Position numbers and translations under genes: made by a program. Under the pieces are notes generated by a model. The model saw nothing but the letters and a program-made list of their open reading frames with translations. It made no database searches and was not told the DNA's origin. Source: Alphaproteobacteria bacterium (GTDB lineage Bacteria; Pseudomonadota; Alphaproteobacteria; Micavibrionales; Micavibrionaceae). From it: a DNA stretch of 64,000 bases. The DNA lies in the NCBI GenBank assembly GCA_050633165.1, contig JBOEFZ010000014.1, forward strand, positions 3,655 through 67,654, written 5' to 3'. Positions 26,406 through 37,661 of the stretch are shown piece by piece. Every line of letters begins with the position of its first letter. Within the stretch, counting starts at the first letter, position 1.

Positions 26406-26441
26406 ACATGTAAATATATTTCCTCTAATATATTTACATGT
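26406..26441. promoter_or_regulatory. perfect 15 bp inverted repeat with a 6 nt spacer, overlapping the start codon of the 26438 ORF
   Basis: The sequence is acatgtaaatatatt-tcctct-aatatatttacatgt. The ATG at 26438 lies inside the right arm. Confidence 0.5.
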
Positions 26442-26947
26442 CATATAGCACATATACACATGATACTAACAGCCCCCTAGAGCCTGAATACGTTCATAAC
26501 ATCGTTATTCAGGTATGCGTCCCCAACCAAGGGGAGAGCGTTTCACCTGACATGAGCGCATATGTTGTTGCATTACACTTTGATAGCTTTGAGGCTTTAA
26601 ATCAATTTTTACAGCATCCTCAACGGGAAGAAATGGAAAACTCTATACAACACTTCTCTGCAAATTCAAATGATGTTGCTTTCACCATTCAACAGGAAAG
26701 AGAGAGGGACGCACCAGAAAATAAAAACTTTTACCCGGACTCTGGCCCCGAAAGCTTTAACGAAGGAACAATTCTTGATTTTGAAACTATTTATTCGGAA
26801 TATGCACACATTTTAAATGCCACATATGAGGCTAACATTTTATCCGCAAATGTACTGGAAAAAGGTTTTAGTATAAATCCGTTAATGTGTGCCGATAATC
26901 AATCTTTGCCTGAAAATATTGCACAACTCCAATCACCGCGCCCCTAA
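26438..26947 (+). CDS. hypothetical protein (AT-rich orphan)
   Basis: 169 aa ORF. One line counts ~35% GC. I see no motif and no signal peptide. Confidence 0.45.
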   Translation: MSYSTYTHDTNSPLEPEYVHNIVIQVCVPNQGESVSPDMSAYVVALHFDSFEALNQFLQHPQREEMENSIQHFSANSNDVAFTIQQERERDAPENKNFYPDSGPESFNEGTILDFETIYSEYAHILNATYEANILSANVLEKGFSINPLMCADNQSLPENIAQLQSPRP

Positions 26948-26967: not shown

Positions 26968-27699
26968 TTAAATACAGCCCGCTTCATCGCCATCTGTATC
27001 GCCGTTATATTCGGCGTCGGGTTCGTTGATGACCATGCGGACGCGGAAGCAGACGGATCCGGAGGGGCATTGGGTTAGGGCGGTTGTCGCGCTATCTAAA
27101 TCAATGGCAGAGAGGCTCGCATCAATGACGTCGGCTTCGCATTCATCGAATTGTTCGTCGAGGCGTTCGAGGGCGGAGAGGATGAAGGCGTCGGATTTGG
27201 AGCTTTCTATCCAAAAATAAACGCCGTCTGTGCCGTTGTAATATTGCCATGGCTCGAACAAATCAGGGGTTGGCGGCATGAATTTTCCGGTGCTGCCGCC
27301 GAAGAGTTTCGTGTGATTAACCGCTGCGCCGTCGGGGTTACCGGGGCAACGGATGCCGGAAACGTTGCGGTCACCCGATTGCGCGGGGGTTGCGGCGGAG
27401 AAATGCGTGGAATTGGGATTAATAGGGAATTGCGTATTGGCGTCGGGGTCTGAACCACTGCCGGAGGTGTCGATCGTGCTATCGCCTTGGGGGTAGAGAA
27501 GGAGGCATTCCTGGATTGCGGAGCGGATTGTATCAACCTGCCCCTGCAAGTCCGTTGCGGTTTTGAAGGTGTTTTGAGAGGAGGTTTGCTGGGAGGATGG
27601 CTCCATGAAGCTAACGGTTAGGGCCGCGAGCAACGCAATGGCGATCAAAATATAAACAAGCGCGCTACCATTTTGAGAGTTGGAAGCGCGCTTTGTCAT
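26968..27699 (-). CDS. pilin-like protein B (large, Cys-rich, non-canonical class III-like signal)
   Basis: A short basic leader is followed by NG|SALVYILIAIALLAALTVSF with no Glu at +5. The mature part is ~230 aa with 6 Cys. It is the last gene of the filament locus. Confidence 0.6.
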   Translation of the reverse strand: MTKRASNSQNGSALVYILIAIALLAALTVSFMEPSSQQTSSQNTFKTATDLQGQVDTIRSAIQECLLLYPQGDSTIDTSGSGSDPDANTQFPINPNSTHFSAATPAQSGDRNVSGIRCPGNPDGAAVNHTKLFGGSTGKFMPPTPDLFEPWQYYNGTDGVYFWIESSKSDAFILSALERLDEQFDECEADVIDASLSAIDLDSATTALTQCPSGSVCFRVRMVINEPDAEYNGDTDGDEAGCI

Positions 27700-27726
27700 T
27701 ATTATATCCTAGGTTCTAGGCTGAAT

Positions 27727-28467
27727 TTATGATTCGTAGATCACGTGGTAGTAAACATATTCACCACCGTTATTCTGGAAACATCCGAAGGCTTGTCCAT
27801 CAAGCGCGCCACCAGTTACAGCATCTCCACCGGTTCCGATTGTGATATCATTGGTTGTTGCAAAAGAGATACCGTTATCAAGAATGCGGTTATACCCTTC
27901 TGTAGTGTCATCCGTTCCAGAGACATCCGTTCCGGTATCAGGGATACCGGAAATTCCAAGTTCAGTATTGATGCGTGAGCAAACAGCTTGTTTAATGCCG
28001 GGCAGGAAGGCAATGATTTCGTTTCCTGTTGCCGCACCGGAAGATGTAAGACCGACGTTAACAATTTCAAAGTCACCGTTAAATGTCCATGTCCCCTGTG
28101 CGCCATTTGCCATCACATCGGCAATTGCAGGCGCATATGTTGCATTACCACCAGACGGATGGAACACACAGTCTGTACCGGAGGTTGAACAGTTACCGAA
28201 GTCAGATGGTGGATTAAACTCCATGTCTGTTGGGTCGATCCCTTTGGAAACCTGCATCCGGATCAAAGAGGTTCTTATTCCTGTTGGATACTGCGTAATT
28301 GCCGCCGTATTCACAAGGTTTGTTTCATCGTTGGCATCACCGCCACCGGAGCGTGTTGATGATGTTACCGCGTATGAAAGCGCGGCAAAAAGAGCCACAG
28401 CGATAAGAATAAGGAACAGGACATTCCCGCTTTCATTTTTTCTTGATTTTGTTTGTATAGGTTTCAC
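27727..28467 (-). CDS. pilin-like protein A (large, non-canonical class III-like signal)
   Basis: The leader MKPIQTKSRKNESG is followed by NVLFLILIAVALFAALSYAV with no Glu at +5. There are 4 Cys. The start is a GTG with AAGGGG 8 nt upstream. Confidence 0.65.
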   Translation of the reverse strand: MKPIQTKSRKNESGNVLFLILIAVALFAALSYAVTSSTRSGGGDANDETNLVNTAAITQYPTGIRTSLIRMQVSKGIDPTDMEFNPPSDFGNCSTSGTDCVFHPSGGNATYAPAIADVMANGAQGTWTFNGDFEIVNVGLTSSGAATGNEIIAFLPGIKQAVCSRINTELGISGIPDTGTDVSGTDDTTEGYNRILDNGISFATTNDITIGTGGDAVTGGALDGQAFGCFQNNGGEYVYYHVIYES

Positions 28468-28531: not shown

Positions 28532-29113
28532 TCACTTCGGCTTCACGGAAATAGTATTTATTTTCAATGTTGTACTTAATGGCTTGCCCTCGCATTCCCG
28601 CCCTACGCAAAGGCTTTTTATATCAATGCGCCAACCATCTCCACCGTTTTGAACATGGCCGATTGCTTCGCGGAATTGCCCGAATGTATTGGTTGAACTG
28701 GCGGTCATAGAGATGGCGGTGCCGGAAGCTTTTATATCTACGCCCTGATAAATATCTTTCATACGCTCGGCGAACTTCTTTAAATCGTTTGGCTTAACAG
28801 CCTGATTTACAATTTTCGGGACAGAGGGTTTGATCGCTTCGGCTTCCTGAAGCTCTGTGCGTAACTGCGTTAAAGATTGGAGATTTACAACCGTGAACAG
28901 GCCAACAGCAGCAGCCCCCATCCACACGACGCCGGCGATGACCAACATTGTCTGACTGGCATTTTGCGGCATTTTTTCGAGGAAATGGTTTAAATCCTCG
29001 GCTGCACTGGCGTTTGTTAGTTTATTAAGCGACCGTGGGTCAAAATCTTTGATCGCATTTTTAAATGCTGCGATGATTTGTTTGAATTGATTATTTTTCA
29101 TCCCTGCCCCCAT
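28532..29113 (-). CDS. bitopic inner-membrane assembly protein, GspM/PilO-like by architecture
   Basis: A ~60 aa cytoplasmic N-terminus, one TM helix (MLVIAGVVWMGAAAVGLFTVV), a coiled segment and a ~90 aa periplasmic domain. The start overlaps the upstream stop (TAATG). Confidence 0.45.
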   Translation of the reverse strand: MGAGMKNNQFKQIIAAFKNAIKDFDPRSLNKLTNASAAEDLNHFLEKMPQNASQTMLVIAGVVWMGAAAVGLFTVVNLQSLTQLRTELQEAEAIKPSVPKIVNQAVKPNDLKKFAERMKDIYQGVDIKASGTAISMTASSTNTFGQFREAIGHVQNGGDGWRIDIKSLCVGRECEGKPLSTTLKINTISVKPK

Positions 29114-30078
29114 TACCTTGACCCGACAACGCGTACGCGTCCATCACGGGCAGTATTTTCTTCATCGACGCGCGCAGGCAGGCGCTCCATAATCGGCTGT
29201 ACGAAGGCGGGTGGGATAAGAGCCTCCCATACGACTTTATTGCCATCGACATGATATTTCACAAGCGTACCGTCAACGCGCGAGAAGACGTCGAGCAATT
29301 CCTGCACACGCACCATGTGTTTGATGGAATCATTTTTCATGATGTTATTAGCATTTGTCATGAGCTCCATTGCCGCTCGGTCGGTTTGTTTTTGCACTTT
29401 TTCAAGGTCGCGTTTAATCATATTGACGGACAAAAAGCTGAAGACAAGGATGCAGGCCGCGATAATACCAACCAACAGGCCGGATACGACCAGCATTTTT
29501 GCTGTCGCGCGTGTGAGTTGCTCGGTTTTCAGGTTGCGGTTACGCCATGGAACCACATCCGCCATATCAGGATTAATGGTTACGAAATTCGCGTCCATGC
29601 TCTGGATACGCGGTAAGATAGTACGGGATGCGCCGAGATAGACCTGCATCCGTTTTGTATCGGGGTCCCAACGCAGGGCGGAGGCTGTTCCCTCTTGTTC
29701 ATACAGGTAGACGGTTTCCTGATCCCAATATTCGCTATTCCCCGGAAGGGCGGCGGCGAGCGGGCACCAGCTATCGGGGTTGGAAGACATGGCGGCGGAA
29801 GGGCATGCGAGATACCAGATTTTGTTTTCATCAACGGCATAGCAATAGTGCACTTTTTCCGTGCCGCAAGCCTGGGAAGCGGCATTCCATACGGCTTCGT
29901 CTTCTGTGCCGGGGATGTGCGGGATGCTGCCGCCGATTACTTCTTGCGGTAGGTAGGGCTTTAAATCCTCGACAAATGCACCGCCTTCGCCGGCCAGAAC
30001 ATCGGAGATGCCGGCGGCGGGCTTTGCCCCTGTGCGCTTGTTTGGCGCATCCATTTCGTTTGATTTTCGAATTGCCAC
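29113..30078 (-). CDS. bitopic inner-membrane assembly protein, GspL / PilM-PilN-fusion-like by architecture
   Basis: A ~195 aa cytoplasmic domain, one TM helix (MLVVSGLLVGIIAACILVFSFL) and a ~100 aa periplasmic domain. The start is GTG at 30078, or alternatively ATG at 30054. Confidence 0.45.
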   Translation of the reverse strand: MAIRKSNEMDAPNKRTGAKPAAGISDVLAGEGGAFVEDLKPYLPQEVIGGSIPHIPGTEDEAVWNAASQACGTEKVHYCYAVDENKIWYLACPSAAMSSNPDSWCPLAAALPGNSEYWDQETVYLYEQEGTASALRWDPDTKRMQVYLGASRTILPRIQSMDANFVTINPDMADVVPWRNRNLKTEQLTRATAKMLVVSGLLVGIIAACILVFSFLSVNMIKRDLEKVQKQTDRAAMELMTNANNIMKNDSIKHMVRVQELLDVFSRVDGTLVKYHVDGNKVVWEALIPPAFVQPIMERLPARVDEENTARDGRVRVVGSR

Positions 30079-30136: not shown

Positions 30137-31357
30137 TTAGACTGCCCCTTGCATGAGACCGCCCATCATTGAATCCATGCTCATATTCATGACCGTCAGG
30201 GCGTAGATCGCGGAACCGAAAGCGATCACAAGGAAGACGCCGGTTAATGCGAAGGCGAGCCAGACAATCAACGTGTGTTTCGTTTTTGCCGCCTGTGCGC
30301 GCATCTCAGTAATCGACTCCATGATTGTAGCAACTTGATCGAGATCAGACAAGCTTGCAAGCTCGAGGCGTTCATTGCGGCGTAAGGGTTCGCGGTCAAG
30401 AGCGGAACCGAGGCTGACCCCGCGGCTTAGATCATCAAGCGAGTCGTTCCAATACATTGCCACATCCGGCGCGCCGGAGGCTTCGGCGGATTGTTGAAGC
30501 GTGTCGTTAATCGGTACCATACCGCGGATCATACGCGCGGCAGCGGACATGGAGTCAGAGAACGCCAAGTCACGCATATAGCCGCCAATGAGCGGGATTT
30601 TTCGTACAAGGCGTGCGGTTGGCCAATCCTTTTTCCCGCGATTAACCCAAAAGGAAAATACGCACCATGCCATAAAGACACCGGAGGCGACGGAAACGAA
30701 GATGAGGGTGTCCCATGTTAGTTCCAGATTACCAACAACGCGGTCGAATTGCTCTAACGCCTCGGGGTCGGTTGGGGGGTTATCGCGGAACCAGCCCAAA
30801 ATCATATCCTTACCCGCCCAAAGCGAGGAAACGATAGAGAACACATCAAAGGCCAGCCAGCCCATTGTTCCCATGATCGCGCGGGCGTTCTTTTTCTTTT
30901 GTGTGATGGAGTGGATGGCATGCGGGATACCTTCGACAAGGCGGTTTGCACGTTCCGATCCGGCGAGGATGGCGATTGTGCCGTGATCGAAGATATTGAG
31001 CGCCTTTAGCGCGTCGATAACGCCCAAACCACGGGCAAGAGCCTCACGCGCGGGGGCGAGGATGTTTTGGCGGCGGGGGTTATCTTCGGCCTGAATAATT
31101 TTCCAAAAGGCCACACCGGGGGAGGTAGAGCCAGAGCGGAATTGGATACCGCGCAGGAGCTGTACCTGCCACCATGTGGAGCGGGCGAGGAGGCGTTCAA
31201 TCGTGGAGCGGGCATGCGGGCGGATACTGAGCGCGAAGCCACCTTTTTTCGCAACAGCAGCGCGGACATCATCAACAGAAGGCAGGTAGAAGGATTCCGT
31301 GACCTTCTTTGGTCCGGAGCGGGTTTCATAAGCAATTTCAGCAACCCATTGCTGCAT
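30137..31357 (-). CDS. type IV filament platform protein (GspF/PilC family)
   Basis: ~406 aa with a duplicated cytoplasmic helical domain plus 3 TM helices, placed directly after the ATPase. The ATG at 31357 has GGAAG 5 nt upstream. Confidence 0.8.
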   Translation of the reverse strand: MQQWVAEIAYETRSGPKKVTESFYLPSVDDVRAAVAKKGGFALSIRPHARSTIERLLARSTWWQVQLLRGIQFRSGSTSPGVAFWKIIQAEDNPRRQNILAPAREALARGLGVIDALKALNIFDHGTIAILAGSERANRLVEGIPHAIHSITQKKKNARAIMGTMGWLAFDVFSIVSSLWAGKDMILGWFRDNPPTDPEALEQFDRVVGNLELTWDTLIFVSVASGVFMAWCVFSFWVNRGKKDWPTARLVRKIPLIGGYMRDLAFSDSMSAAARMIRGMVPINDTLQQSAEASGAPDVAMYWNDSLDDLSRGVSLGSALDREPLRRNERLELASLSDLDQVATIMESITEMRAQAAKTKHTLIVWLAFALTGVFLVIAFGSAIYALTVMNMSMDSMMGGLMQGAV

Positions 31358-31367
31358 TTTCACTTCC

Positions 31368-31618: not shown

Positions 31619-33349
31619 TTAATCTTCGAGATATGACAGCGCGGATTTGGGGTCTATGAGGCCGCTTAGGACGAGGTCAATGAGGCCGTCGCGGCGGGAA
31701 TGGACGATGACGCCCTCTTCGTGGATGATGTCGTTGACGTTGCCGATGAGGGCTTGGTAGATGTCGTTACGTTGCGCGGGACCAAGGGTGATGAGGAGCG
31801 CGTCGAGGAGCAAGGTTCGGCCGGAAATTCCGGTGCGGTTACAAAGGTCACAGCCGGATGTGTTATGGCGGCGGATTTTGGCCTTTGTATCGATGCCGAG
31901 GCGTTCAATTTCATGTGCCTCGACTGCGTTATCGGCGGTGTCTTTGTGGGCGCAGCCTTGGCATAGGGTTCGCACGAGGCGCTGGTTCATGATGGCTTTG
32001 ACTTGTTGCGCGAGGGTGAAGGTCGAGGAGCGTTCCCGCGATGATGGCATGAGAGAGCGCAGGCGCTCGAAGGTTTGGAGCGCGGTATCGGCGTGAATGG
32101 TGGAAATCACGGTGTGACCGGATTCGGCGGCTTTTAGCGAGGTTTCAACGGTGTCGGAATCGCGCATCTCCCCGATGATGATGTAATCGGGATCATGACG
32201 CATCGAGGCACGGATGAGATCGCCGAAGCTTCCGCCATCCATACCGGGGCGGACTTGCCATTGTGTGGCGTAGCGAAGCTCGTATTCAATCGGGTCTTCG
32301 ATCGTCAGGACGTGTTTGCGGCGGCGGTCGATTTGCTGCACGCAGGCATAAAGCGTTGTTGTTTTACCAGAGCCCGTTGGACCGGAGAGGATGATCATCC
32401 CCCCTCCCCCTTTGATCTCGGGCGAAAGAAGGCGGGCGAGGTGGTCGCCGACATCTTCGTGGCGGCGGAAAAGTTCGTCGAAGCCTTTTAGCGCGGCGCG
32501 GTCAAGGAGACGCAGGGTGAGTTTTTCACCGTCTTGGGCTTGTGGCCCTGCGGCGACACGGACATCGATGGCGCGGCCTTGCCATATGAAACCAAAACGC
32601 CCGTCTTTTGGTGTGACGCGATCCCCGAAGTTGAGGCCGGCATCCCGTTTGATGAGTGTTGTGAGACGCGCCATGGCATCGGCGGGGAGGAGATGCATGG
32701 GTAGCATATCGCCATCGATGCGGTATTGGATCCAGTTGGGGGCTTCGGGGTTATTATCCTGCACGATGTGGATATCGGAGGCGCGCATTTGCAGGCTTTC
32801 GGCGAGCATATCGCGTAAGAACTGGTTGAGGAGCAGGCCGTTATCACTATCGACCAGCCATTGGGCGAGGGTTTTTTCGCAGCGATCGGCGGAGAGGTCG
32901 TGCACGCTACGCAGCGTTTCGGTTAATTCTTTACGATCCCAAACCTCGACCTCGATGCGATCAACATGCAGGCCGCTTCGTTGCGCCGTGCTCATGAGGG
33001 ATTCGATCTGGCGGTCATTGAGGTCGTGCAGCGGGGCGATGCGCAAGATGCCGTCGCTCAGGCCGATGAGGTGGATGCTGAGCGGTAGCCATGCTTGCAC
33101 GGGGAGGATTGATCTGAGCTGATCCCCTGTTGCGCGGTCTTTGACGGCGTCATCTTCGGCTTCGGATTGGCTGACCGCGCCGGCCATATCGAGGAGTTGT
33201 TCGGTGGAGCGCGCCAATCCTTGCTCCATCATCATGGTGCGTTCACGTTGCACCATATCGAGGTAACGCTCGCGCCCTTCTGTGGAGCGGGCTTTTAGCG
33301 CGGATTTTGGCGCTTTTTTCTTTTCTGCGGTTTCTTCGGCCATGATCAA
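31619..33349 (-). CDS. type IV filament assembly ATPase (GspE/PilB family)
   Basis: Walker A (GPTGSGKTTT), Asp box (TIEDPIEYEL), Walker B (DYIIIGEMRD) and His box (GHTVISTIHA) are present. So is a tetracysteine CQGC...CDLC motif and a T2SSE_N-like N-domain. Confidence 0.95.
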   Translation of the reverse strand: MIMAEETAEKKKAPKSALKARSTEGRERYLDMVQRERTMMMEQGLARSTEQLLDMAGAVSQSEAEDDAVKDRATGDQLRSILPVQAWLPLSIHLIGLSDGILRIAPLHDLNDRQIESLMSTAQRSGLHVDRIEVEVWDRKELTETLRSVHDLSADRCEKTLAQWLVDSDNGLLLNQFLRDMLAESLQMRASDIHIVQDNNPEAPNWIQYRIDGDMLPMHLLPADAMARLTTLIKRDAGLNFGDRVTPKDGRFGFIWQGRAIDVRVAAGPQAQDGEKLTLRLLDRAALKGFDELFRRHEDVGDHLARLLSPEIKGGGGMIILSGPTGSGKTTTLYACVQQIDRRRKHVLTIEDPIEYELRYATQWQVRPGMDGGSFGDLIRASMRHDPDYIIIGEMRDSDTVETSLKAAESGHTVISTIHADTALQTFERLRSLMPSSRERSSTFTLAQQVKAIMNQRLVRTLCQGCAHKDTADNAVEAHEIERLGIDTKAKIRRHNTSGCDLCNRTGISGRTLLLDALLITLGPAQRNDIYQALIGNVNDIIHEEGVIVHSRRDGLIDLVLSGLIDPKSALSYLED

Positions 33350-33352
33350 GTT

Positions 33353-34930
33353 TTATGTGTCGCCGGACGACCCACCTCCTGATGCGCTTGTACGGTTGGC
33401 GGAAGAGAGGGAACGATCGAAGAGGAGGAGGATGCGTTGCCCTTGATTTAAAAATTCGATCCCGTTTTTCTGGATTACGACGAACCATGGCACGCCGCCA
33501 AGAACGATTTCCTCGCGGTCAAAGACGAGGCGGCTTCCGCCCGGGCCATTGATGATGGCGCGGGAGGGGGAGAATGAGGTGATTTTATAGCCATCGAGTG
33601 TGCCGCCCGCATTTACCCCTGCGGAGAGGCTGAGGCTATTGGCTTTGGCGGCTTGTTTTTGGCTTTCTTCGATATTATTTGGATCAACACCAGAGGATAA
33701 GGCGGTGGAGGGTGCATCGCCGTTGTTCGTCATGATGGCGTTGCCGTCGCTTAGGACAATGGCTTTTTGGTCTTTGGAGACCGAGGTGCTGGCTGTGCCG
33801 CGAATGGGGAGAACGAGAACGCCGCGTGCGCCGTCATGCAGGATTTGCACATCATCGAGGATAGAGCCAACGCGGGTTGGTGACCATGTGATTGTGAGGG
33901 GGCATGCCTCAACCGGTGCGAGAATTGTGCCTTCGGCGCAGCCCTCTTCCTTGAACCCGATACCGTTATCGGACGAAGACATGCGGATATTTTTAAGGGT
34001 CACAGGCGCATCTCCCGCATTGACGAGGGATACGGTCAGGGCAGAGGCGGTTTCAATGCCAGAGCCGAAATCAACATCGCGTTGGGAGGATACGAGTAGA
34101 CCTTTGCCCGGAACGGCGCGGGGGAAAACTTCGGCTTCGGAGACGTTGCCGGGGCTATACTCACCTTTTAACGGGATGCTTGTTAATCCGGCGGGGCCGT
34201 CGTGTTTTACGACCAAAACGCCGGAGGAGCGCCCTTCTAGCTCTGGTGACCATTTGACGCTGGCGATACAGGCTTGTCCGGCTTTTAAAGAGGCGCATTC
34301 GGTGTTGAGGCTATAGCCTGAGCCGTCACCGGTATCGAGATAGATGTCGGAAATGTTGAGGGTTACGGAGGTGATATTGCGCAAAACGATAGGTTCGATG
34401 AGCGTTTGGCTGGCGCTTAATGTGCCGAAATCGAGGTCACTAGGGATGGCTTCGATATCGGTGGTGAGCTTGCCGCCGCCATCGCCGGATTCGACAACGC
34501 CGGAGATTGTGTTTGTGACAAGGCGTGTGCGGCCGCTATGCGCCATGAGCATTTCGACGCGCCATGGGCCGGGCTGTAGGCCTTTTACCGAAAGAGCAAT
34601 GGCGCATTCCGCGCCGGAGGGAAGCGCTTCCGCTTCACATTGGTTTGATGCGACTTCCGCCGTTACGGTTGAGGACGGGTAGAGCTGGATTAATCCCATT
34701 TCAACGGGCTTACCACCGTCATTGCGGAAAAGGACAACGACTTGTGCGCTTGCGCCGATCGGGATGCTGCCGCCGTCAACTTCGCTTTCTGCGGGGACGA
34801 GACCAGCGCCGGTTGCACCGCCGCCGCCACCTGTGCCGGGGTCATTGAAGCCCGCATATTGTGCATATGCCTGCCCGCCCCAGAGCAGGGCAGCAAGTGC
34901 GAAGAGCGGCAATAGCAATTTTTTAAACAT
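33353..34930 (-). CDS. exported protein with three Ig-like repeats and a C-terminal PilP / GspC-HR-like domain
   Basis: The signal peptide reads ...LLWGGQAYA|Q. Three ~100 aa repeats each carry a C-x(8-11)-C pair. The C-terminus (GYKITSFSPSRAIINGPGGSRLVFDREEIVLGGVPWFVVIQKNGIEF) follows the PilP/HR pattern. I prefer the ATG at 34930. Confidence 0.55.
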   Translation of the reverse strand: MFKKLLLPLFALAALLWGGQAYAQYAGFNDPGTGGGGGATGAGLVPAESEVDGGSIPIGASAQVVVLFRNDGGKPVEMGLIQLYPSSTVTAEVASNQCEAEALPSGAECAIALSVKGLQPGPWRVEMLMAHSGRTRLVTNTISGVVESGDGGGKLTTDIEAIPSDLDFGTLSASQTLIEPIVLRNITSVTLNISDIYLDTGDGSGYSLNTECASLKAGQACIASVKWSPELEGRSSGVLVVKHDGPAGLTSIPLKGEYSPGNVSEAEVFPRAVPGKGLLVSSQRDVDFGSGIETASALTVSLVNAGDAPVTLKNIRMSSSDNGIGFKEEGCAEGTILAPVEACPLTITWSPTRVGSILDDVQILHDGARGVLVLPIRGTASTSVSKDQKAIVLSDGNAIMTNNGDAPSTALSSGVDPNNIEESQKQAAKANSLSLSAGVNAGGTLDGYKITSFSPSRAIINGPGGSRLVFDREEIVLGGVPWFVVIQKNGIEFLNQGQRILLLFDRSLSSANRTSASGGGSSGDT

Positions 34931-35079
34931 GTGCGAATACACGACCGATATAAATAAATACGAATCAGAACGACCCATATGTATAGTATATCAGAAAAGC
35001 TGTGGATTAAATATCAAAAATGCAGTTTTTGATTTTAAGGCGTGAACGCATAAAAGGCATAAAAAATGCCCAAAGCGAA

Positions 35080-36612
35080 TCAGTTGGCAGGGTTCAGCAG
35101 ATCAAACGGGACGCTTGTCTTTGGGAACCCTTCATCCGCCAAGGGCGCATCGGATTTACCGGAGCCTATATGGCGTCCATTACTATCCACGACAACGGAT
35201 TTGCGCTTTGCCTGCGCGGGCTGCGCCTCGGCGGTGTAGACGATGACGCGGGGTTTGAGGAGGAAGACGAGTTCCGTGTTTGCCGTTACCGCGCCGCGAC
35301 TAGTGGGGAAAAGCGCGTCTTGGAAGCCAGGGCCGCTATCATCATAAGTATCGGATTCGCGCACCAAGCCACCGATCAGGAGCGAATCACCGGGGCGGAT
35401 GCGGATTTGTGTCGAAAGCTCGCGCTCCGTTGTTTCGGGGAGGCGGAGCGTTGTGCCGTCAGCATCGAAATCTTCGAAGCGGCGGAATTCGTCAAGGTCG
35501 ATCTCAATATCGCCGTAAATCGTGGCGTTATCCCATGAGCTGGCGATTGTGAGGGTGAAGCCGGTATCCACCGAATCGGTTTCCGTGGTGGTGGTGGTCT
35601 CGCCATCCTCGACCGAGCGGGTGAGAGAGGAAACGTAGTTGATCGTGTCCGCCGCGCGCAACGAAGCCTCCGCGCCGGAAAGAACGGTAATTTGCGGCTG
35701 CGAGATTGTTTTTACCGCGCCGAATGTCGATAGGAACTCCAACACATTTCCGGCGGAATAGGATTTGTCATTCAAGGATGGGATTCCAATGCTGATCGGG
35801 GAGCTATCCGTTGCGCCGATCGCGCCGGGGATATCGATAACCGCCCCGCCAATTTTACCAAAATCCTCCCAATTGATGCCCATGTTATTGGCAGTATCCA
35901 GATTCACTTCCCAGATATAAACCTCGAATATAATCAAGGCCGTATTGGCGCGGATGCGTTGCAGATAACGCTCGGCCATTTTTGCGGTGCGGTTTGTGGC
36001 CTCATATATAATGGTGCGTGTTGCCTCATCAACAATCGGACTACTGCCCGTAATTCCGGCGATTCCGGAGGCCACCGCGCTCACCAGATTATTATCACCG
36101 CCAACGGGAGGAACCGCCACGGTAAAGGTCTGGACATCCTTGATCACCAGAAGGTTATCCTCAAAGGCGCAGTAAAGATCAGCAAGGCTACAGACACGGC
36201 GCACAACCTCATCGAGCGGGCCGCGAAGATTCGCAACCGTGATGGTGCGGGTCATGCCTTCGTTGGTTTCGAAGGCCAGCGGGATTTCGTAATCTGCCAA
36301 AATAAGTTGCAGCGCGCCGGCGAGTGTTTCCGAGCGCAGCTCAAACGGGCCGACCTCCGCCGTTGGCAAGGGGCTCGAATCAAGCGTCTCAGGGACGAGG
36401 ACATCACTGCCCAAGGGTAGGTAAATCACGCTATCGGGGCGTTCATTCACTGCCTCGGGGCGTTGATCAGCCATAGTTGGGGAGGGAATATTTACATTCC
36501 GCGAGCCGGGCACAGTTGCCTGCGCGCAGCCAAACAGGGCGAACGCAGCCGTCAGCAGCAGCAAAACCTTTGCCGCATTATTATAATGGCTATGCACTCC
36601 GCCGATTATCAT
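35080..36612 (-). CDS. secretin (GspD/PilQ superfamily) with a lipobox-like signal, as in type IVb secretins
   Basis: The C-terminal secretin core is present (IRIRPGDSLLIGGLVRESD....TELVFLLKPRVI). The N-terminus reads LLLLTAAFALFGC. Confidence 0.9.
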   Translation of the reverse strand: MIIGGVHSHYNNAAKVLLLLTAAFALFGCAQATVPGSRNVNIPSPTMADQRPEAVNERPDSVIYLPLGSDVLVPETLDSSPLPTAEVGPFELRSETLAGALQLILADYEIPLAFETNEGMTRTITVANLRGPLDEVVRRVCSLADLYCAFEDNLLVIKDVQTFTVAVPPVGGDNNLVSAVASGIAGITGSSPIVDEATRTIIYEATNRTAKMAERYLQRIRANTALIIFEVYIWEVNLDTANNMGINWEDFGKIGGAVIDIPGAIGATDSSPISIGIPSLNDKSYSAGNVLEFLSTFGAVKTISQPQITVLSGAEASLRAADTINYVSSLTRSVEDGETTTTTETDSVDTGFTLTIASSWDNATIYGDIEIDLDEFRRFEDFDADGTTLRLPETTERELSTQIRIRPGDSLLIGGLVRESDTYDDSGPGFQDALFPTSRGAVTANTELVFLLKPRVIVYTAEAQPAQAKRKSVVVDSNGRHIGSGKSDAPLADEGFPKTSVPFDLLNPAN

Positions 36613-36661: not shown

Positions 36662-37045
36662 TTACCGAGAAGAGAGTTTCAAGGCACGACTCACCGTTCC
36701 TGTTAGTCTATCGCGTTGAACGGGTTTCATCAAGACGGCAGCGACTCCCCACTTGTTTGCTTCTGTGAGTAAGTCGGGATTTTGGTCGCCGGTGACAAGG
36801 ATTACGGGGGCTTCGTTGCCTTCGCCGCGAATATGTTTTACGAATTCGAACCCGTCGATTGGCTCCATCCGGATATCGACAATTGCCATATCAATGGTGT
36901 GATCCATCTTCTCTAAGGCTTCGCCGCCGTCGGAGGCTTCGATAATTTCGTACTCGCTGCCTTCTTCGTCTTTTAGGAATTTGACGATCTGCATGCGGAC
37001 GAACGCGTTGTCTTCTACGACCATGATACGGGCGTTATTTGCCAT
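36662..37045 (-). CDS. single-domain response regulator (CheY-like receiver), first gene of the filament operon
   Basis: Receiver motifs are present: VVEDN, the phospho-acceptor AIVDIRMEPIDG, LVTG and KP. The start is uncertain: ATG at 37045 is preferred and the maximal ORF runs to 37081. Confidence 0.85.
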   Translation of the reverse strand: MANNARIMVVEDNAFVRMQIVKFLKDEEGSEYEIIEASDGGEALEKMDHTIDMAIVDIRMEPIDGFEFVKHIRGEGNEAPVILVTGDQNPDLLTEANKWGVAAVLMKPVQRDRLTGTVSRALKLSSR

Positions 37046-37154
37046 GTTGTGTGGTAACCCTACTAATTTTTCCCTCATCACTATAGTGTAATTTAGAAAT
37101 ATTAAATAATGTAAAATTTTAAAAAGTATTTTATCGAATTTATGTGATTTTTTT

Positions 37155-37661
37155 ATGGTTTATTTTTTAATCCTTATATTAGGCGCGGCAGCGGCGGTTT
37201 TGCTTGTTTTGAGCGTGATTGATTTGCGGATTCGGTTGTTGCCGAATGTGTGGAATGCGGCATTGGCGGGATTGGCCGTTGTGTTTCATGGTATGGGCGG
37301 GTTTGCGGTTTTATCCCCCTTTGATATGGCGATGGGCGCGGCGATGGGAGGTGGATTATTGTGGGTGATTCGGTTTGGGGCGAATTGGTATTACGGGCAA
37401 GATGCGCTTGGCCTTGGGGATGTGAAATTGATGGCGGCGGCGGGGCTTTGGCTGGGGGGGCATGATGTGCTTTCGGCGCTTATTGTCGGGGCATTGGCGG
37501 GGATTGTGCATGGTGGGGGCGTGCTAATCGCTCATAAGATCAAGCATACGATGATGCCACCGCTCTCGCATTTTTCCATCCCTGCGGGTCCGGGGTTTTG
37601 CTTTGGTATTTTTGCGATTGGGGCTTGGGTTTATGCGCCGTTTATAAGCGGCATGTTTTAA
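37155..37661 (+). CDS. A24-family prepilin peptidase, short form without the N-terminal methyltransferase/zinc region
   Basis: 168 aa and polytopic. Both catalytic Asp motifs are present (SVIDLRIRLLPN and LGLGDVKLMAAAG). It is transcribed divergently from the filament operon. Confidence 0.85.
   Translation: MVYFLILILGAAAAVLLVLSVIDLRIRLLPNVWNAALAGLAVVFHGMGGFAVLSPFDMAMGAAMGGGLLWVIRFGANWYYGQDALGLGDVKLMAAAGLWLGGHDVLSALIVGALAGIVHGGGVLIAHKIKHTMMPPLSHFSIPAGPGFCFGIFAIGAWVYAPFISGMF

Follow-up and report, generated by a model that had tools for sequence, protein, structure and literature searches.

Pilin A and pilin B of a Micavibrio-like bacterium: paired prepilin-like proteins without Glu5 and a probable non-canonical type IV filament machine

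The glutamate at position +5 of the mature subunit (Glu5) has been described as absolutely conserved in bacterial type IV pili (PMC10710030). Could a bacterium build such a filament from subunits that all lack this residue? The question is raised by a 64-kb stretch of a Micavibrio-like genome (contig JBOEFZ010000014.1 of assembly GCA_050633165.1), which was analyzed as a whole and is referred to below as the window. Positions 26968-28467 of the window hold two adjacent minus-strand open reading frames (ORFs), here called pilin A and pilin B, whose N-terminal hydrophobic helices resemble each other and have no Glu5. This observation is real and far beyond chance. On balance, A and B probably undergo processing and serve as pilins or pseudopilins in a third machine of Micavibrio-like predators, a non-canonical type IV filament or type II secretion system (T2SS)-like apparatus.

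27727-28467, minus strand: pilin A, 246 amino acids, GTG start, from the ORF list
28426-28467, minus strand: leader of pilin A, residues 1-14, with the C-terminal end R-K-N-E-S-G
28363-28425, minus strand: invariant hydrophobic helix of pilin A, N15-T35, NVLFLILIAVALFAALSYAVT
Remainder of pilin A: Gly-rich linker, then a globular domain with conserved Cys163 and Cys229
26968-27699, minus strand: pilin B, 243 amino acids, ATG start, from the ORF list
27667-27699, minus strand: leader of pilin B, residues 1-11
Residues S12-M32 of pilin B: hydrophobic helix with an invariant Tyr at +5
Remainder of pilin B: break at E33-P34, second helix at residues 36-68, then a beta-sheet head with six Cys

The N-terminal signal of pilin A and pilin B

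Pilin A and pilin B are real genes, found conserved and unannotated. A plausible ribosome-binding site lies upstream of each, and the two form a neighboring pair across Micavibrio-like genomes. Homologous clusters number more than 3000 for pilin A and more than 1000 for pilin B; those that carry a name are called hypothetical, save for a few 'PulG' labels given to pilin B relatives in IMG. A scan for promoters and terminators around the two genes gave a signal no better than that of shuffled sequence. A first-pass annotation of the window had given the coordinates of both ORFs, their N-termini and their content of Cys residues (four in pilin A and six in pilin B), all of which proved correct.

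The same annotation had pointed to the absence of acidic residues from the hydrophobic helix, and this also holds. Neither protein has an Asp or Glu within the 21 residues after the Gly that ends the leader, and position +5 is Leu in pilin A and Tyr in pilin B. The motif G-x4-E was found in none of the 404 family proteins of A and B that were retrieved, and +5 was never Glu. An alternative start exposing a G-F-x-x-x-E motif was considered and rejected, because none exists in any frame; this agrees with the earlier statement that no in-frame start yields G-F/M-x-x-x-E.

The pattern of conservation around the Gly is abrupt. In alignments of 118-120 homologues per family, the leader is hypervariable in sequence and in length (median 15 residues, range 5-41), with a median net charge of +2. 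Conservation then sets in with Arg(-6), followed by Glu(-3) in A or Glu/Gln(-3) in B and by Gly(-1), which is kept in 117 of 118 A homologues and 119 of 120 B homologues. The leader-end consensus of both families is R-x-x-[E/Q]-x-G. The 21 residues that follow are near-invariant, reading NVLFLILIAVALFAALSYAVT in A and SALVYILIAIALLAALT.. in B. The frequency of the most common residue is 0.9-1.0 in the two helices (70-81 orthologues) and 0.1-0.2 in the leaders. Control alignments of 50-81 orthologues were made for every protein of the operon to which A and B belong, and two of its membrane proteins, of 193 and 321 residues, give values of about 0.6 and 0.45, respectively, for their membrane helices. 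The helix is close to invariant although whole A and B orthologues share just 50-80% identity, and it is the most conserved segment of each protein, like alpha-1N in pilins.

These features bear on an alternative in which the two N-termini would be Sec (class I) signal peptides of the ordinary kind. A and B would then be periplasmic or secreted proteins and possibly substrates of the machine. Such an explanation would account for a basic region followed by a hydrophobic stretch, and the Cys-rich globular parts are of a kind seen in many exported proteins. The hydrophobic stretch of class I signals, however, measures 7-15 residues, while that of A and B measures 21 and is not followed by an A-x-A-type site. 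Cleaved signals also evolve fast, yet here the stretch is the most conserved part of both proteins. Maximal conservation of the helix is the opposite of the pattern expected for a cleaved Sec signal peptide, and this alternative is highly improbable.

The helices of A and B are identical at 11 of 21 positions. As a background, the best of 274 other hydrophobic 21-mers translated from the window matches the B helix at 7 and the A helix at 9 of 21 positions. When the two family profiles were compared with hhalign, only the N-terminal 33 columns aligned (probability 93%, E 2.4e-7), indicating that the N-termini are homologous and the globular parts unrelated. The first-pass annotation had judged the helices to be related and the globular parts not to be. 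Both judgments stand, but the motif it proposed for the two helices implied a slightly higher degree of likeness than they have.

Relatives of pilin B help to place the cleavage site. A search of 1.8 billion representative proteins with the B-family profile returned 219 clusters with the same N-terminal design, in which position +5 is Tyr in 95 of 132 and Glu in none. A compact subgroup of about 170 residues has a classical [KR]-G|F cleavage site followed by x-x-x-Y, which supports the assignment of the Gly in A and B as residue -1. A relaxed site search had picked out the upstream Gly of the frequent G-E-x-G; cleavage there was rejected, since Gly occupies that position in only about one third of A homologues. 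Taken together, the sequence comparisons support a prepilin-like class III signal without Glu5 in both proteins, as the first-pass annotation had suggested, with conservation starting sharply at [E/Q]-x-G.

In a scan covering one genome per species, pilin A relatives were found in 493 genomes, and the counts of genomic context given below rest on 80 listed loci from among these. Nearly all of the 80 belong to Micavibrio or to metagenome-assembled genomes (MAGs) labeled Alphaproteobacteria, Bdellovibrionales or Pseudobdellovibrionaceae, and they include the cultured M. aeruginosavorus HCB189. Proteins of the window are 73-83% identical to their counterparts in Micavibrio MAGs, which places the window in an obligate predator of the Micavibrio-like group. 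Literature searches found no published description of the A and B proteins or of a locus of this type.

Two related Micavibrio-like genomes also have an extra pilin A paralogue with the invariant N-terminus, located away from the main locus (L061 8584-10732 and L030 8543-10687). It lies directly 3' of a gene for an extracytoplasmic function (ECF)-type sigma factor and a gene for a protein of 267-276 residues. The C-terminal portion of the latter, about 210 residues, is homologous to the pilin A globular domain (39-40% identity), and its N-terminus consists of an anti-sigma-like cytoplasmic segment and an ordinary membrane helix. This anti-sigma-like protein may serve to sense either the pilin pool or the ligand of the pilin.

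The peptidase, the machine and their expression

Pilin A and pilin B form the 3' end of a minus-strand operon headed by a response regulator, and M. aeruginosavorus and dozens of MAGs share this gene order. The genes of the locus and its immediate surroundings are as follows.

37155-37661, plus strand: short A24 prepilin peptidase, 168 amino acids, PF01478 only, no methylase domain; divergent from the operon
36662-37081, minus strand: single-domain response regulator at the head of the operon, kept in 53 of the 54 loci that reach the secretin
35080-36612, minus strand: lipoprotein secretin, PF00263 (E 8e-19), N-terminal lipobox ..ALFGC..
33353-34978, minus strand: secreted protein of 541 amino acids with immunoglobulin (Ig)-like (ASH / choice-of-anchor D) domains and a conserved C-terminal domain
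31619-33349, minus strand: GspE/PilB-family assembly ATPase, 576 amino acids, PF00437 (E 2e-78)
30137-31363, minus strand: divergent GspF/PilC-type platform protein, 408 amino acids, PF00482 (E 2.6e-5, just under the cutoff)
29113-30078, minus strand: bitopic protein of 321 amino acids in the position of a GspL-type component, with a cytoplasmic domain, a poorly conserved membrane helix and a periplasmic domain
28532-29113, minus strand: bitopic membrane protein of 193 amino acids in the position of a GspM/PilO-type component, with a moderately conserved membrane helix
24231-26189, plus strand: hybrid histidine kinase, convergent with the operon and syntenic in most loci

The peptidase is the component that ties the N-terminal signals to a machine. 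It had been described in the first-pass annotation as adjacent and without a methyltransferase region, which is borne out by its length and its single PF01478 domain. Its catalytic Asp23 and G-L-G-D89 motif are invariant among orthologues, and it adjoins the locus in 50 of the 54 loci that reach the secretin. A search for a solved relative of this 168-residue protein found none. The gene table of M. aeruginosavorus ARL-13 lists three 'type IV leader peptidase' genes, one for each type IV filament locus.

GMV_531: leader peptidase of the Tad/Flp locus
GMV_1537: full-length leader peptidase, 825 bp, in the locus with PilT and a canonical prepilin
GMV_1939: leader peptidase of the pilin A/B locus, 507 bp, orthologue of 37155-37661

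A dedicated peptidase implies dedicated substrates, and pilin A and pilin B are the only candidates in the locus.

The remaining genes describe a bacterial assembly machine that is distant from all curated models. The first-pass annotation had spoken of a secretin-containing machine, and the PF00263 protein bears this out. The nearest curated models of this secretin are MshL and the PilN-type IVB family, and its best solved relative is BfpB; the scores themselves are low (80 bits against a cutoff of 288 for the PilN-family model, and 47 against 351 for GspD). Its lipobox Cys is invariant among 55 orthologues, and for this reason it is probably a self-piloting lipoprotein secretin like BfpB, as judged by sequence. 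The nearest solved relatives of the ATPase are EpsE/GspE (187 bits), then PilF (163) and BfpD (89). In model searches it scores 238 bits for GspE (cutoff 630), 64 for FlaI and 61 for the TadA family, and it falls under every curated equivalog cutoff. The platform protein reaches 20.9 bits with the GspF equivalog (cutoff 424), with a mean column conservation of about 83% among its orthologues. The 321- and 193-residue proteins gave no family match, and searches of the PDB with the 321-residue protein and the platform protein gave no assignment. The Ig-domain protein is possibly a GspC/PilP-type link to the secretin.

The kinase and the response regulator flank the locus and have kept their synteny, which suggests dedicated two-component control of the machine, with the hybrid histidine kinase possibly acting as the regulator of the system. 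Between pilin B and the kinase gene lies a plus-strand ORF of 169 codons (26438-26947), for which neither a family match nor a homologue in the 80 related loci was found; this is an orphan gene or a spurious ORF. The guanine-cytosine (GC) skew is positive in every 2-kb bin of the window (0.005 to 0.34), irrespective of gene strand.

The orthologous locus of M. aeruginosavorus ARL-13 extends from GMV_1928 (asd) to GMV_1941 (pyrB). GMV_1930 (774 bp) occupies the position of pilin B and GMV_1931 (738 bp) that of pilin A, and both are annotated as hypothetical proteins. In RNA sequencing data that were mapped to A and B by synteny and gene length, the expression index of GMV_1931 is the highest of the locus; it stands at 9.9 in the attack phase and increases fivefold, to 53.8, when the predator is in the attachment phase. 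The index of GMV_1930 is 1.8 and 4.1 in these phases, respectively, and the remaining genes of the locus lie between 0 and 10.8. This pattern fits pilin A being a bulk subunit induced at prey attachment and pilin B a minor subunit. The corresponding values are 705 and 385 for the Flp pilin GMV_530 and 34.5 and 196.5 for the canonical prepilin GMV_1530. Given the high expression of GMV_1931, GMV_530 and GMV_1530, all three filament systems are active in predation.

The genome paper of M. aeruginosavorus described a T2SS without annotated GspC, G, H and K and gave no locus tags for it (PMC3189940). By its gene content this T2SS is probably the GMV_1930-1939 locus, and A and B are likely to be its missing subunits.

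A proposed filament and the evidence for and against it

The AlphaFold model of pilin B, built from 114 sequences, has a mean predicted local distance difference test (pLDDT) value of 87.5 and a predicted template modeling (pTM) score of 0.79. It consists of a helix at residues 13-31, a Met-Glu-Pro-Ser break, a helix at residues 36-68, and then loops and a beta-sheet containing one further helix. The N-terminal helix is thus kinked and about 56 residues long, with a Pro at mature position 23, and the predicted architecture is lollipop-like. The sole pilin that Foldseek matched to the model was PilA1 of C. difficile, at a probability of 0.47, which is insignificant and no more than a hint.

A second explanation must also be weighed. 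A and B could be uncleaved, signal-anchored bitopic parts of the inner-membrane platform, structural or regulatory in role and comparable to GspC/L/M or PilN/O. The invariance of their helices would then stem from close packing against the platform protein and have nothing to do with a filament. This would explain why neither protein has Glu5 or matches a pilin family or structure, and it would suit the flexible Gly-rich tether that follows the helix of pilin A. The pilin A globular domain also sits on the ordinary membrane anchor of an anti-sigma-like protein in some genomes, so that it can work as a membrane-tethered periplasmic module. It leaves unexplained, however, the [E/Q]-x-G at the cytoplasmic edge and the G|F site in relatives, and a syntenic, catalytically intact A24 peptidase would be without a substrate. 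The helices of the operon's true bitopic proteins are poorly conserved, the A orthologue is expressed at 5-15 times the level of the machine genes in the attachment phase, and the pilin B model is lollipop-like. We regard a bitopic role as unlikely, although it deserves some weight.

Homologous clusters outside the Micavibrio-like group extend the picture. Compact B relatives occur in Actimicrobium sp. (Betaproteobacteria) and on metagenome contigs, where they belong to clusters with both an A-like and a B-like gene (L081 2729-18614 of Actimicrobium sp. CCC2.4, CP133777.1, and likewise L082-L087). The order of genes in these clusters is ATPase, platform protein, homologue of the 321-residue protein, a protein of 153-190 residues that takes the place of the window's 193-residue protein, a PpiC-type rotamase, the A-like protein, a hemerythrin-like protein (found in the Actimicrobium-type clusters) and the B-like protein. 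Last comes a giant, fibre-like protein, which is between 1800 and more than 5000 residues long and often ends in a Peptidase_S74 domain. The secretin gene follows the giant protein in Actimicrobium-type clusters and stands at the head of the cluster in L082. A search within 10 kb of the L081-L087 clusters found no peptidase gene.

The relationship of these clusters to the Micavibrio-like locus is evident in both the subunits and the machine. With hhalign, the A family aligned over 193 columns with a 207-residue Actimicrobium protein (probability 96.5%, E 1e-9), and the B family matched a 175-residue protein with a probability of 94.5%. The ATPase, platform protein, 321-residue protein and secretin of the window all match clusters of the L081/L082 type. 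The platform protein does so with E values of 1e-26 to 1e-30, as against about 1e-4 with the curated GspF/PilC models, and the 321-residue protein is homologous to proteins of 307-326 residues in L081 and L082. A tblastn search with the 193-residue protein gave no match in the wider clusters; its counterpart in L081 was assigned by position, size and a C-terminal Cys motif seen by eye. Since the pair and the machine genes are homologous across clusters, they make up a coherent branch, as yet without a name, within the type IV filament superfamily.

The giant proteins are relevant to a third explanation, in which A and B are processed but form only a non-extending priming or tip stub of GspK-like subunits, capping or docking something else, either a canonical Glu5 pilin from another locus or a cargo, for which the giant fibre proteins are candidates. 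The tip subunit is the only one without Glu5 in known systems (PMC10191384). The N-terminus of pilin B is weakly GspK-like: it scores 13 bits with the GspK equivalog NF037980 (cutoff 130), over the N-terminal 36 residues only, and pilin A has no match to this model. Eight canonical prepilins are encoded elsewhere in the M. aeruginosavorus genome, and the related clusters place a protein of 1800 to more than 5000 residues between pilin B and the secretin. On the other hand, a scan of the window for Glu5 pilins, canonical prepilin motifs and Flp motifs gave none, and in the 80 related loci its one match was a Flp pilin gene (L029). According to the ARL-13 gene table, the canonical prepilins are encoded apart from this locus, together with a full-length peptidase, a secretin and PilT of their own. 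The Micavibrio locus has no giant protein, and the strong expression of A is more in keeping with a bulk subunit than with one at the tip. A stub of this kind appears distinctly unlikely.

If instead A and B are processed subunits of a filament, assembly could proceed as follows. Both proteins would be inserted in the inner membrane with the basic leader in the cytoplasm. The peptidase encoded at 37155-37661 would cut the leader after the invariant Gly of R-x-x-[E/Q]-x-G, without methylating the new N-terminus, and the GspE-like ATPase and the divergent platform protein would pull the mature subunits out of the membrane. Polymerization through the invariant N-terminal helices would yield a pilus or a short pseudopilus, which would pass through the lipoprotein secretin or work beneath it. 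Pilin A would be the abundant major subunit, and pilin B a low-abundance subunit with a GspK/PilX-like N-terminus, probably serving in priming or at the tip. Because neither protein has Glu5, the core would be formed without the usual salt bridge from Glu5 to the N-terminus of the next subunit. By analogy with Tyr6 of the Tad pilus, register between subunits may be kept by the invariant Tyr5 of pilin B and its wider family, together with a polar +1 residue (Asn or Ser). A likely function of the system is attachment to prey or secretion where predator and prey make contact. We infer cleavage and polymerization from what was observed directly, namely the sequence architecture, conservation, synteny and expression pattern of A and B and the predicted fold of B.

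Several points weigh against a filament of processed A and B subunits. Scans of pilin A, pilin B and 28 members of each family with Pfam and NCBIfam gave no pilin or N_methyl (IPR012902 / TIGR02532) match; what appeared was noise with E values above 0.01 (FtsH_ext, PilE_C and PilS). Searches of PDB sequences with both family profiles returned no solved structure for A or B, and Foldseek found nothing below E 0.2 in the PDB for the pilin B model. The AlphaFold model of pilin A, from 28 sequences, is poor (pLDDT 65, with residues 33-110 unreliable), and Foldseek found no structural match with it. Directly after the pilin A helix comes a conserved Ser/Gly-rich linker (..TxSxRSGGGDA..E), and pilin A may on this account have no continuous alpha-1 helix. 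Both proteins, with some 230 residues in their mature form, are also bigger than is usual for a major pilin. The assignment of expression values to A and B by synteny and gene length is a further weakness, and the case for processing and for a filament draws on sequences and models. Finally, classical pilins with a point mutation at Glu5 are unable to assemble into homopolymers (PMC4471445). That Glu5 is dispensable for prepilin processing (PMC4471445) counts, by contrast, in favor of A and B being processed. A system in which every subunit is without Glu5 is unusual, because normally only the tip subunit lacks it and homopolymers need it.

A broader proposal is put forward tentatively, as a possibility that we hold to be rather doubtful. 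The locus could represent a new class of bacterial type IV filament, distinct from type IVa pili, type IVb pili, Tad, MSHA, Com and T2SS. Glu5 would be absent from all of its subunits, register would be kept by Tyr5 and a polar +1 residue, and the peptidase would have no methylase. The class would be universal in Micavibrio-like obligate predators, as a part of the predation apparatus that is induced at prey attachment, and would export or display giant fibre proteins in Betaproteobacteria.

The interest of such a system lies in the place of Glu5 at the center of current assembly models. A widespread bacterial system with all its subunits free of Glu5 would be a natural test case and could show what Glu5 and N-methylation do and how a core is built without them. 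The system occurs across a whole order of obligate epibiotic predators that attach and feed by obscure mechanisms, and its presumed major subunit is induced at attachment. The locus is also a concrete genetic target in predators that are being explored as living antibiotics. A functional hypothesis would become available for two large families (more than 3000 and more than 1000 clusters), and an annotation gap in M. aeruginosavorus, whose 2011 genome paper did not find pseudopilins for the T2SS, is likely filled by A and B.

Comparison with known systems

The machine resembles a T2SS in its composition: its ATPase is near GspE/EpsE, it combines a secretin with a platform protein and a pair of bitopic proteins, and a retraction ATPase is absent. 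A T2SS, however, has five pseudopilins as opposed to the two found here, neither of which has Glu5 or an N_methyl match, and the scores of the locus with the GspD, GspE and GspF equivalogs are far under their cutoffs.

Type IVb pili (Bfp, Tcp and the R64 thin pilus) share with this locus the grouping of genes in one cluster and, probably, a lipoprotein secretin, and their pilins, like A and B, are large, with long and variable leaders and a +1 residue other than Phe. In contrast, type IVb pilins keep a Glu5 that is essential for assembly. The ATPase is also much nearer to GspE (187 bits) than to BfpD (89 bits), and all curated type IVb models score under cutoff.

The Tad/Flp system has a short peptidase without a methylase domain, as does the pilin A/B locus. 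The leader of Caulobacter PilA ends with an acidic residue, one other residue and Gly. Tad pilins have an aromatic Tyr6 beside position 5, where pilin B has Tyr5. In the Tad pilus of Caulobacter, it is not Glu5 that contacts a neighboring subunit; the register is kept by Tyr6, which is placed beneath the N-terminus of the subunit that follows (PMC10710030). Flp pilins, however, are only 40-60 residues long and begin with G|xxxxEY, whereas A and B have about 230 residues and no Glu5. The Tad machine uses a TadA-type ATPase and a TadB and TadC platform, compared with a GspE-like ATPase and a single 408-residue platform protein here. The secretin of the pilin A/B locus is MshL/BfpB-like, and Micavibrio has a genuine Tad locus besides.

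Archaeal type IV pilins also often lack Glu5; they are not N-methylated, and the core of their filaments is purely hydrophobic. The first-pass annotation had accordingly called the signal logic archaeal-like, a label that is not upheld. The machine is bacterial, with an ATPase of GspE type (238 bits, against 64 for FlaI), a single GspF-type platform protein and a secretin, and the invariant Gly(-1) and the [KR]-G|F site of relatives are bacterial in character as well.

The subunits themselves have a parallel in the tip subunits GspK and PilX (PilK). These have, as A and B do, a class III signal without Glu5; their helix has a G-[SV]-A-L-type start, and they are low-abundance partners of a major subunit, an arrangement that is also seen here. 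The globular domain of GspK is unrelated to that of pilin B, and the Glu5-bearing partners GspG, H, I and J have no counterpart in the locus. Known GspK-type systems combine one Glu5-less subunit with four or five Glu5 pilins, whereas in the pilin A/B locus both subunits, including the abundant pilin A, are without this residue.

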